This document shows positions 4,906-15,355 of a DNA stretch of 64,000 nucleotides, in pieces. This DNA comes from Escherichia coli (lineage in GTDB: Bacteria > Pseudomonadota > Gammaproteobacteria > Enterobacterales > Enterobacteriaceae), in NCBI RefSeq assembly GCF_013315695.1, contig NZ_CP054353.1; one strand, written 5' to 3'. The notes beneath the pieces are model-generated. The model made no database searches. It was not told the origin of the DNA and saw nothing but the letters and a program-made list of their open reading frames with translations. The stretch's first letter is position 1. Every line of letters begins with the position of its first letter. A program made the translations under genes and the position numbers.

Positions 4906-6078
4906 TTAACGAACAGCGCGGATGGCGTTAATTAATCCAGCCACACCTTTTTCCAGTTTCGAACGCGGGCACCCGGCATTGAGTCGGACAAAACCACGAC
5001 CTTCTTCACCGTAGGTATATCCCGGCATGATCGCGACCTTCTCTTGCTCGATAAGCGCTTTTTGCAACGCGTTGTCGTCAATATTCAACGGACGTAGATC
5101 AATCCAGGCCAGATAAGTGGATTGCGGGATCTGCCAGTTGAGTTCAGGGAACGCGGCGTTCATTTTATCTGCGATATATGTCAGGTTATCTTTCAGATAG
5201 ACGCGTAAGGCATCCAGCCACGGCGCGCCTTGCTGATAGGCGGCGATATGGGCAGTTAACGCCAGTACTGAAGGGGAAGAAAGGCCATCACGTCCTTTCA
5301 GTGTCGATAAATAGGCATCACGGCTGCTGCTATTTTCTATAATCCCGTAAGCACCGGTCAGGGCGGGAATATTGAAACTTTTCGATCCCGACGTTAGCAA
5401 TGCCCAGTCTCCGCGCGCCACATTACTCCAGGGAATATGCGGCTGCTCGCCCCAAACCATATCCATATGGATTTCATCGGAAATAACCCGCACACCATGA
5501 CGCTCGCACAGGTCAGCCATGATCTCCAGTTCATCGCACGTCCACACTTTCCCGGTAGGATTCTGTGGGCTACACAGGAGCATAATTTTACATTCTGGTT
5601 TCGCCAGCACGGCTTCCAGCTTGCCCATATCGCAAAACCAGCCGTCAGCCTGCTTCTCTAAAGCAACGGGCATTACTGTGCGCTGGTTACCTTCAATGGC
5701 CTTGTAAAATGCGTCATAGGCGGGTGTGTGGATCACCACGCCTTCACCTGTTTCAGACCACTGACGAATCAGTTCTGAAACCATATAGATAACAGAAGGG
5801 CCATACACCACCGACTGAGGATCGATGGCGGTGTAATGCTGGGTGGAAAACCAGTGGGCAATAGCCGCGAGAAACTCATCGTTTTTCCAGCGGCTGTAGC
5901 CAAACACGCCGTGCATCAGACGCTGATTCAGCGCCTCGATAATGCAGGGGGCAGTGGCAAAATCCATGTCTGAAATCGTGAACGGTAACAGGTCAGCAGT
6001 GCCGAAACGGTCGGCGACATAATCCCACTGCGTACACCATGTGCCATGACGATCCACGACCTTTGAAAAATCGAACAT
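4906..6078 (-). CDS. malY: MalY, PLP-dependent cystathionine beta-lyase and MalT antagonist
   Basis: 390 aa ORF of aminotransferase class I/II type; position downstream of malX. Confidence 0.93.
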   Translation of the reverse strand: MFDFSKVVDRHGTWCTQWDYVADRFGTADLLPFTISDMDFATAPCIIEALNQRLMHGVFGYSRWKNDEFLAAIAHWFSTQHYTAIDPQSVVYGPSVIYMVSELIRQWSETGEGVVIHTPAYDAFYKAIEGNQRTVMPVALEKQADGWFCDMGKLEAVLAKPECKIMLLCSPQNPTGKVWTCDELEIMADLCERHGVRVISDEIHMDMVWGEQPHIPWSNVARGDWALLTSGSKSFNIPALTGAYGIIENSSSRDAYLSTLKGRDGLSSPSVLALTAHIAAYQQGAPWLDALRVYLKDNLTYIADKMNAAFPELNWQIPQSTYLAWIDLRPLNIDDNALQKALIEQEKVAIMPGYTYGEEGRGFVRLNAGCPRSKLEKGVAGLINAIRAVR

Positions 6079-6087
6079 ATCTTATCC

Positions 6088-8883
<2,796 letters not shown>

Positions 8884-9982: not shown

Positions 9983-10573
9983 ATGATGGATAACATGCAG
10001 ACTGAAGCACAACCGACACGGACCCGGATCCTCAATGCTGCCAGAGAGATTTTTTCAGAAAATGGATTTCACAGTGCCTCGATGAAAGCCATCTGTAAAT
10101 CTTGCGCCATTAGTCCCGGGACGCTCTATCACCATTTCATCTCCAAAGAAGCCCTGATTCAGGCGATTATCTTACAGGACCAGGAGAGGGCACTGGCCCG
10201 TTTCCGGGAACCGATTGAAGGGATTCATTTCGTTGACTATATGGTCGAGTCTATTGTCTCTCTCACCCATGAAGCCTTTGGGCAACGGGCGCTGGTGGTC
10301 GAAATTATGGCGGAAGGGATGCGCAACCCACAGGTCGCCGCCATGCTTAAAAATAAGCATATGACGATCACGGAATTTGTTGCCCAGCGGATGCGTGATG
10401 CCCAGCAAAAAGGCGAGATAAGCCCAGATATCAACACGGCAATGACTTCACGTTTACTGCTGGATCTGACCTACGGTGTACTGGCCGATATCGAAGCGGA
10501 AGATCTGGCGCGTGAAGCGTCGTTTGCTCAGGGATTACGCGCGATGATTGGCGGTATATTAACCGCATCCTGA
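9983..10573 (+). CDS. uidR: UidR, TetR-family repressor of the glucuronide (uid/gus) operon
   Basis: 196 aa ORF with TetR-type N-terminal HTH; located immediately upstream of uidA. Confidence 0.9.
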   Translation: MMDNMQTEAQPTRTRILNAAREIFSENGFHSASMKAICKSCAISPGTLYHHFISKEALIQAIILQDQERALARFREPIEGIHFVDYMVESIVSLTHEAFGQRALVVEIMAEGMRNPQVAAMLKNKHMTITEFVAQRMRDAQQKGEISPDINTAMTSRLLLDLTYGVLADIEAEDLAREASFAQGLRAMIGGILTAS

Positions 10574-10962: not shown

Positions 10963-13838
<2,876 letters not shown>

Positions 13839-13853
13839 GGTAATGACTCCAAC

Positions 13854-14357
13854 TTATTGATAGTGTTTTATGTTCAGATAATGCCCGATGACTTTGTCAT
13901 GCAGCTCCACCGATTTTGAGAACGACAGCGACTTCCGTCCCAGCCGTGCCAGGTGCTGCCTCAGATTCAGGTTATGCCGCTCAATTCGCTGCGTATATCG
14001 CTTGCTGATTACGTGCAGCTTTCCCTTCAGGCGGGATTCATACAGCGGCCAGCCATCCGTCATCCATATCACCACGTCAAAGGGTGACAGCAGGCTCATA
14101 AGACGCCCCAGCGTCGCCATAGTGCGTTCACCGAATACGTGCGCAACAACCGTCTTCCGGAGCCTGTCATACGCGTAAAACAGCCAGCGCTGGCGCGATT
14201 TAGCCCCGACATAGCCCCACTGTTCGTCCATTTCCGCGCAGACGATGACGTCACTGCCCGGCTGTATGCGCGAGGTTACCGACTGCGGCCTGAGTTTTTT
14301 AAGTGACGTAAAATCGTGTTGAGGCCAACGCCCATAATGCGGGCTGTTGCCCGGCAT
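13854..14357 (-). CDS. insB: IS1 InsB (expressed as an InsAB' fusion by -1 frameshift)
   Basis: 167 aa ORF overlapping the insA 3' end in the -1 frame; IS1 transposase core. Confidence 0.9.
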
Positions 14358-14551
14358 CCAACGCCATTCATGGCCATATCAATGATTTTCTGGTGCGTAC
14401 CGGGTTGAGAAGCGGTGTAAGTGAACTGCAGTTGCCATGTTTTACGGCAGTGAGAGCAGAGATAGCGCTGATGTCCGGCGGTGCTTTTGCCGTTACGCAC
14501 CACCCCGTCAGTAGCTGAACAGGAGGGACAGCTGATAGAAACAGAAGCCAC
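14276..14551 (-). CDS. insA: IS1 InsA
   Basis: 91 aa [43 protein letters not shown], matching IS1 InsA. Confidence 0.93.
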
Positions 14552-14606
14552 TGGAGCACCTCAAAAACACCATCATACACTAAATCAGTAAGTTGGCAGC
14601 ATCACC

Positions 14607-15310
14607 TTCGTGATGAAGGGGTGTATAACAGCCAGACGGGAAAATACGATAAACATCGCGCACGTTCTTTTTTAGCCGCCAGTTGGCATGATGATACCAG
14701 TCGCTATTCTCTGGGGGCATCGGTACAGAAAGATGTTTCCAATCAGTTACAAAGTATTCTCGAGAAAAGCATACCGCTCGACCCGAATTATACGTTGAAA
14801 GGGGAGTTGCTCGGCTTTTACGCGCAACTTGAAGGTTTAAGTCGTAATACCAGCCAGCCCAATGAAACGGCGTTAGTTAGTGGACAATTGACCTGGAATG
14901 CGCCGTGGGGAAGCGTATTTGGCAGTGGTGGTTATTTGCGCCATGCAATGAATGGTGCCGTGGTGGATACCGACATTGGCTATCCCTTTTCATTAAGTCT
15001 TGATCGTAACCGTGAAGGAATGCAGTCCTGGCAATTGGGCGTCAACTATCGTTTAACTCCGCAATTTACGCTGACATTTGCACCGATTGTGACCCGCGGC
15101 TATGAATCCAGTAAACGAGATGTGCGGATTGAAGGCGCGGGTATCTTAGGGGGTATGAACTATCGGGTCAGCGAAGGGCCGTTACAAGGGATGAATTTCT
15201 TTCTTGCTGCCGATAAAGGGCGGGAAAAGCGCGATGGCAGTGCGCTGGGCGATCGCCTGAATTACTGGGATGTGAAAATGAGTATTCAGTATGACTTTAT
15301 GCTGAAGTAA
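14607..15310 (+). pseudogene. uidC: C-terminal fragment of the outer-membrane glucuronide porin UidC; 5' part missing at the IS1 junction
   Basis: Open frame starts at the IS1 boundary; 229 aa beta-rich fragment; position between uidB and ydgA. Confidence 0.7.
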
Positions 15311-15319
15311 GAAAAAAAT

Positions 15320-15346
15320 GCCGGAGAGAAAAATCTCCGGCGTTTT
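15320..15346. terminator. Bidirectional terminator between convergent uidC and ydgA
   Basis: GCCGGAGA-GAAAAA-TCTCCGGC hairpin followed by GTTTT. Confidence 0.6.
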
Positions 15347-15355
15347 GGCTGTGAA

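Follow-up and report, generated by a model that had tools for sequence, protein, structure and literature searches.

A stretch of 64,000 nucleotides from Escherichia coli (assembly GCF_013315695.1, contig NZ_CP054353.1), referred to here as the window, carries an insertion sequence between the frames of uidB and uidC. In general, IS1 generates 9-bp duplications of its target, shows regional and site-specific target preference and promotes adjacent deletions in which the element itself is retained. The locus therefore raises the question of whether this copy is a simple insertion or part of a deletion, by which route the structure arose, and where it stands in time relative to the frameshift in neighbouring uidA.

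The uid operon in the window

The gene order hdhA, uidR, uidA, uidB', IS1, 'uidC, ydgA, manA matches the context of the uidRABC (gus) operon, and the RefSeq annotation of identical or near-identical records agrees with these gene assignments. The repressor gene uidR (9983-10573, plus strand, 196 aa) is intact and is annotated as UidR (WP_000969092.1) in the near-identical genome MSB1_4I. The uidA gene (10963-12769, plus strand) is a pseudogene, split into open reading frames of 149 and 466 aa and annotated as 'frameshifted' in MSB1_4I. The frameshift described in the initial annotation of this DNA is real: one copy of a tandem pentamer was lost (GAACTGAACT to GAACT, uidA nt 408-417, window position ~11370). 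This 5-bp deletion is a slippage event.

The uidB fragment (12766-13838, plus strand) comprises nt 1-1073 of 1374, i.e. codons 1-358 of 457. Its open frame continues for six codons (VMTPTY) inside IS1 up to a stop at 13858-13860, which gives a fusion product of 364 aa. The truncated UidB matches positions 1-354 of the 427 positions of Pfam MFS_2. The uidC fragment (14607-15310, plus strand) comprises nt 563-1266 (codons 189-421), without start codon, signal peptide and the first 188 codons. The annotation of MSB1_4I lists a partial UidC with a missing N-terminus, and RefSeq also annotates a partial uidB and an IS1 transposase in identical genomes. From the sequence, the clone to which the window belongs is predicted to have lost glucuronide hydrolysis, uptake across the inner membrane and the outer-membrane porin.

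The spacer between uidC and ydgA (15311-15355) is ~150 bp longer in K-12 and several other strains, with K-12 positions 5949-6100 being skipped in the alignment. This length difference is probably a polymorphism of a REP-type intergenic element.

The IS1 element

Window positions 13839-14606 comprise a complete, IS1A-like IS1 of 768 bp on the minus strand. Its terminal inverted repeats are imperfect, 23 nt long and begin with GGTRATG; the two arms are 78% complementary. The IRR end (13839-13861) begins with GGTAATGACTCC, and the IRL end (14584-14606) finishes in GGCAGCATCACC. A degenerate pattern of the inverted repeats gave four matches in the 64-kb window, equivalent to two IS1 copies, vs zero expected from shuffled sequences.

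The insA gene (14276-14551, minus strand, 91 aa) encodes a Zn-ribbon and a helix-turn-helix and matches the Pfam profiles Zn_ribbon_InsA and HTH_Tnp_IS1 (PF03811, E = 1.3e-21; PF12759, E = 4.7e-31). The insB' frame (13854-14357, minus strand) encodes the DDE transposase domain (PF03400, DDE_Tnp_IS1, E = 2.3e-78). All three IS1 Pfam scores were far above the cut-offs. The two frames are joined by an A6C programmed -1 frameshift motif (AAAAAAC; TTAAAAAACTC, 14294-14300, minus strand), and the transposase coding sequence is annotated with 'programmed frameshift' in MSB1_4I. From its sequence, the uid copy is complete and apparently functional.

A second complete IS1 is present in the window (32459-33226), in the same orientation as the uid copy and placed between lsrK and the 5' end of an autotransporter gene of the ECSE_1600 family. 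It is flanked by a perfect 9-bp duplication (AAAACTCTT) and serves as an internal control for a simple insertion. The two copies differ by 1 nt, and the uid copy differs from IS1A-like copies of other strains by 1-4 nt. At IS1 position 507, a private base is common to the uid copy and the other copy of the window only.

Junctions and the extent of the loss

At the IRR end of the element, uidB is cut off after nt 1073, and the first uidC base behind the IRL end is nt 563. The left 9-bp flank is CGGCGTGCG (13830-13838, uidB nt 1065-1073), which has no duplicate across IS1, and the right 9-bp flank is TTCGTGATG (14607-14615, uidC nt 563-571). The two are identical at one of nine positions, i.e. 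there is no target-site duplication (TSD). Microhomology between the flanks and the IS1 termini was found at neither junction.

In comparison with K-12 MG1655 and with the IS-free relatives MS 21-1 and AF14, exactly 901 bp are missing. They comprise uidB nt 1074-1374 (301 nt), the 38-bp spacer and uidC nt 1-562; the loss amounts to 910 bp if one lost copy of the TSD is counted. Both breakpoints coincide with IS1 termini, and IS1 itself is intact. MS 21-1 and AF14 match the right flank at 100% over 3,599 bp and the left flank at 99.85% over 6,844 bp; the identity of the locus to K-12 is ~98%.

Since the flanks lie 901 bp apart in every reference and a 9-bp duplication is lacking, the structure is an IS1-associated deletion and not a simple insertion. 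The lack of the duplication is expected if DNA was lost after insertion. Had the 901 bp already been gone when IS1 inserted, a TSD should flank the element, which is not the case. The initial annotation had placed an IS1 with differing 9-bp flanks between the uidB and uidC frames and had preferred an IS1-adjacent deletion to a simple insertion. The exact 768-bp element, the frames abutting both of its termini and the single matching flank position agree with this description. The deletion as such is borne out, and its route is favoured only. The two findings that had been named as speaking against a deletion, flanks contiguous in a reference or a 9-bp duplication, did not appear. The size of about 0.85 kb proposed for the loss between uidB and uidC was slightly low.

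Relatives and the order of the lesions

Over uidB-IS1-uidC, the window is 100% identical to MSB1_4I (rectal swab, Australia) and differs from AF3 (blood culture, UK) by approximately one base. In total, 3 of 10,545 aligned bases differ between the window and MSB1_4I. Because its arrangement beyond ~25.4 kb departs from both genomes, the window is a third member of the MSB1_4I/AF3 clone. The source is a human-associated E. coli clone, commensal or extra-intestinal. The 5-bp deletion in uidA was found in two of 5,426 complete RefSeq genomes (MSB1_4I and AF3), and these are the same two complete genomes that carry the IS1 junctions of the window. The exact 364-aa UidB::IS1 product is on record on 425 public contigs (indexed in 910 blocks), including KTE143 and other NCBI drafts. 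In all nine places examined that carry this product, the uidA deletion was present.

The nearest IS-free relatives, MS 21-1 and AF14, have an intact uidRABC. The complete chromosome OZ038680.1 carries the uidA 5-bp deletion but no IS1, and its uidB (457 aa) and uidC (421 aa) are intact. Across 5 kb, the variable sites give a conflict-free nesting of (AF14, MS 21-1, (OZ038680.1, IS1 clone)). Hence uidA was inactivated first, and the IS1-associated loss in uidB and uidC came later.

This stepwise nesting fits relaxed selection on the transport genes after loss of the enzyme. The initial annotation had argued for relaxed or negative selection on the pathway. The first part is in line with the nested lesions, which are as relaxed selection predicts; for the second part, selection against the glucuronide pathway, no evidence was found. 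The annotation gives an intact uidA for most other strains that carry IS1 in uidB or uidC.

The locus is a clean natural case of stepwise operon decay in which the order can be recovered: the enzyme, then transporter and porin. The uidB/uidC lesion and the uidA frameshift together are a marker of a widespread human-associated clone. The clone is predicted to be beta-glucuronidase-negative and would hence be missed or misclassified by E. coli tests based on MUG or X-gluc. In a literature search covering IS1 in uidB or uidC, this strain and GUS-negative lineages, no publication was found on the locus, the predicted GUS-negative genotype of the clone or the uidC hot spot described below.

A Logan contig (SRR8428032) with an apparent uidA frameshift and intact uidB and uidC was rejected because it is a chimera assembled from two strains. 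It mismatches the lineage allele at 22 positions, 20 of which lie at contig positions 3045-3995; this interval corresponds to the 901-bp segment plus at most about one k-mer per side. The flanks of the contig are those of the clone, uidA frameshift included, and enclose a 2%-divergent copy of exactly the segment missing from the clone. The allele switches within about one k-mer of the IS1 junction positions, and the contig is an example of a chimera at an IS breakpoint.

Recurrent IS1 sites in uidB and uidC of other strains

In strain 3908, FDAARGOS_943, the AVS0223 group (five genomes) and ET5, a simple IS1 insertion abuts TTCGTGATG in the same register, with a 9-bp duplication of this sequence. 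The ET5 copy has the opposite orientation. An opposite-orientation IS1 at this site was also found in ERR12830928, the background of which is identical to MS 21-1; the contig ends inside IS1, and only the left junction is visible. Up to 43 nt separate the IS1 copies of these events, and differences between the adjoining uidC alleles appear within 14-141 nt of the junction. Because both the IS1 variants and the flanking alleles differ, at least six events, in both orientations, are independent as judged from sequence, which identifies uidC nt 563-571 as an exact IS1 hot spot. Eight of 20 mapped IS1 events across the 2.7-kb uidB-uidC span use this site, some of the loci having been retrieved through that very junction. 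Such a share would not be expected by chance under uniform targeting.

Strain 1506, Res13 (opposite orientation) and the window all keep the junction at uidC nt 563, and the uidB side has lost 270, 757 and 901 bp, respectively. These three belong to different lineages, so that they support an adjacent deletion in the window only indirectly. T16R and AB66 form a mirror set with a common uidB junction near nt 1121 and differing end points in uidC. The left junction of the window (uidB nt 1073) was found in two of 5,426 complete genomes, i.e. in this clone only. It lies in a cluster of IS1 sites (uidB nt 1065-1094), which includes simple insertions with TSDs at nt 1070-1078 and 1086-1094. A separate IS1-plus-deletion event, from uidB nt 1068-1070 to uidC nt 608, is present in 2018-01-1CC and ET220.

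Further sites of this kind were seen in uidB. At nt ~1119-1122, IS1 junctions occur in three lineages (ET650, T16R group, AB66), in both orientations and with differing IS1 variants. The uidB breaks of N54 and B27 are 1 bp apart (nt 1263/1264; loci within nt 1255-1264).

Altogether, IS1 was found in uidB-uidC in at least 29 genomes in the orientation of the window and in at least 49 in the reverse orientation, with one genome having both, which gives at least ~77 of 5,426. The loci retrieved at first all shared the orientation of the window, but an orientation bias was rejected as an ascertainment effect: the reversed query gave 49 vs 29 genomes. Judged from the spans, adjacent DNA is gone from approximately a third to half of the IS1-bearing loci listed, and many of the ~77 genomes show convergent deletions of roughly 750-950 bp. 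Among these at least ~77 loci, two IS1 copies were found in one (EC-107), and this pair is inverted.

A strong target-site preference explains the IS1 matches in uidB-uidC in part. That loss of UidC and/or UidB is in addition advantageous in some niches is improbable in our assessment. If it were true, a surface-exposed receptor or a costly or toxic uptake route might, for example, be removed, and TTCGTGATG would act as a mutational shortcut to an adaptive loss. For a role of UidC as a phage receptor driving the loss, no support was found: a uidC knockout has no phenotype for any phage of the BASEL collection. The site at uidC nt 563-571 and the uidB junction clusters are a natural target for studying IS1 site selection and the formation of adjacent deletions.

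Further IS copies and rearrangements

In two members of the clone (OZ039495.1 and GCA_000461175.1), the left junction of uidB' with IS1 is kept (IS1 at locus positions 5074-5841), and beyond IS1 a region with Lactamase_B, tautomerase, flavin reductase and N-acetyltransferase genes replaces 'uidC. The exchanged right flank means that the uid copy continues to mediate rearrangements.

Three further IS copies are located within 11 kb: an IS4 (~20005-21430), an IS2 (~24150-25480) and a second IS4 (~29110-30547). The IS2 splits a ydeT-like fimbrial usher gene into parts that match profile positions 615-877 and 401-610, and the second IS4 splits the autotransporter gene of the ECSE_1600 family (profile positions 555-1177 and 1-534). 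At ~19985-21430, the window has a class I fumarate hydratase gene, IS4 and then the fimbrial genes ydeQRST; the same order is present in MSB1_4I. AF3 has fumarate hydratase-IS4-fumC-tus instead, an order that matches K-12. The difference points to an inversion or other rearrangement bounded by IS4 in the terminus-proximal region, with its far end outside the window. Beyond ~25.4 kb, MSB1_4I, AF3 and the window are mutually different.

The gene lsrK (autoinducer-2 kinase; 33457-35045, minus strand) consists of two overlapping open reading frames (profile positions 238-521 and 2-235) and is probably frameshifted. The adjoining lsrR is intact.

Route to the present structure

The right flank is identical to that of the IS-free relatives, and IS1 shares the private base at position 507 with the other copy of the window. 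Hence IS1 arrived in situ and was not imported with a foreign uidC allele. Import of an IS1-bearing uidC allele by horizontal transfer was rejected on the same two observations.

We consider it probable that IS1 inserted first and then promoted a transposase-driven deletion of adjacent DNA. The sequence of events starts with the slippage deletion of 5 bp that frameshifted uidA. A resident IS1 copy would then have inserted into the uidB-uidC segment, most likely at TTCGTGATG (uidC nt 563-571), with IRL facing the 3' part of uidC and with a 9-bp duplication. In the next step, the IRR end would have attacked a nearby uidB target in an intramolecular transposition of the cointegrate type, with loss of the left copy of the TSD plus 901 bp. 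IS1 would have stayed intact, its IRR now joined to uidB nt 1073. The end state is a UidB cut at residue 358 of 457, a lost uidB-uidC spacer and a UidC fragment without its first 188 codons.

In the mirror order, IS1 would have entered uidB first (nt 1065-1073), and the deletion would have extended rightwards to the uidC hot spot; the sequence fits this order equally well. If insertion and intramolecular attack have the same site preference, the hot spot is uninformative, and the two orders are therefore equally likely. Use of the hot spot as a guide to the ancestral junction was rejected on this logic of a shared target preference. In a precursor with IS1 first in uidC, the junction would read CAACAACCGGTATTCGTGATG followed directly by GGTAATGACTCC, in the lineage allele with the uidA 5-bp deletion. 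In a precursor with IS1 first in uidB, the IRL sequence GGCAGCATCACC would be followed directly by CGGCGTGCGAAT.

A simple insertion of the same lineage and the same orientation was absent at either junction from the 5,426 complete genomes and from the exact-protein look-ups, so we infer the two-step path. The TTCGTGATG junction with a 9-bp TSD was found in four to five other lineages and not in the lineage of the window in the same orientation. ERR12830928, considered as a precursor via a predicted 191-aa UidC::IS1 product, was rejected: its IS1 has the opposite orientation and its uidA is intact, which makes it a separate event.

Insertion followed by adjacent deletion is favoured because it needs two events only, because the precursor state is common at TTCGTGATG in other lineages and because the nested deletions share an anchored end. 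Losses of 270, 757 and 901 bp from one junction are the pattern classically made by IS-anchored adjacent deletions. Moreover, directly oriented IS1 pairs were not seen among the at least ~77 IS1-bearing loci, and the IS150 cases of the E. coli long-term evolution experiment (LTEE) took the two-step path: all 14 TSD-less IS150 insertions with deletions turned out to be an insertion and then an adjacent deletion (PMC11708052).

A less probable but serious rival route is that two IS1 copies inserted in the same orientation (at uidB nt 1065-1073 and uidC nt 563-571) and that RecA-dependent recombination between them deleted one copy plus 901 bp. What remained would be one IS1 between unrelated flanks, an end product identical to that of an adjacent deletion. 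Since the IS1 copies of the genome are almost identical (the two of the window are a single base apart), a recombinant element would not be recognisable as a chimera. As the model predicts, both junctions lie in IS1 target clusters (uidB nt 1070-1078 and 1086-1094; the uidC hot spot). The clone is also rich in IS1 (at least 40 matches per genome), the uid copy was later rearranged in OZ039495.1 and GCA_000461175.1, and loss of TSDs is known to result from recombination between IS copies (PMC11708052). However, three events are needed instead of two, including two same-orientation insertions within 1 kb in one lineage. EC-107 does have IS1 copies in both uidB and uidC, but they are inverted, and no directly oriented pair was found among the at least ~77 IS1-bearing uidB-uidC loci. 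The loss of adjacent DNA at about a third to half of the listed loci rather fits a frequent one-step process starting from a single IS1.

It is very improbable that insertion and deletion were simultaneous, i.e. that an IS1 from elsewhere joined its ends to two targets 901 bp apart and a TSD was never formed. To our knowledge, such a one-step insertion with deletion is undocumented for IS1. In its favour, no intermediate of any kind turned up, even though 425 contigs carry the final form, and a TSD-less IS at the centre of a deletion has been proposed to arise in this way for IS5 and IS481 (PMC11708052). Against this stand the simple insertions at TTCGTGATG, a precursor state that is common in other lineages, and the IS150 deletions, every one of which was an insertion followed by an adjacent deletion (PMC11708052).

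A simple insertion with a decayed duplication, or an assembly artefact at a repeat, for which only the general fact speaks that IS elements often break or confuse assemblies, is already refuted by the 901 bp missing relative to relatives with 99.85-100% identical flanks and by two independent complete genomes, as well as further assemblies and scaffolds, that have the identical structure.

Comparison with known systems

The classical cases of IS1-promoted adjacent deletions come from DNA next to IS1 in the gal region and from Tn9 and R-plasmids; the 1975 work of Reif and Saedler is reported to be an example. As in these cases, an intact IS1 is kept at the uid locus, the deletion starts at an IS1 terminus and there is no TSD. 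The end point is at a site that is also used as an IS1 insertion target, and nested deletions are found in other strains. Unlike the classical deletions, the uid case is derived from comparative genomics and concerns a natural clone with an operon that was already inactive.

GUS-negative E. coli O157:H7 resembles the clone in that GUS was lost clone-wide (predicted here) through a short indel that shifts the uidA frame. O157:H7 is another lineage with another mutation (the clone lost a 5-bp pentamer at uidA nt 408-417), and in the clone the 3' end of uidB and the 5' end of uidC have also been lost via IS1.

In Shigella and other IS1-rich E. coli, IS elements drive pseudogene decay, with many IS copies, interrupted non-essential catabolic or surface genes and IS-bounded rearrangements. 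Similarly, five IS copies are located within ~20 kb of this window. In contrast to Shigella, the clone of the window is a commensal or extra-intestinal E. coli, and the operon is still intact in its closest relatives.

The uid locus shares with the LTEE IS150 cases the TSD-less IS copies at deletion junctions and their explanation by several steps (PMC11708052). IS150 belongs to the IS3 family, and its intermediates were recovered from frozen time points, whereas the uid case concerns IS1, for which a same-lineage intermediate was not found. In sum, the uid case is ordinary IS1 behaviour and leaves the current understanding of IS1 unchanged.
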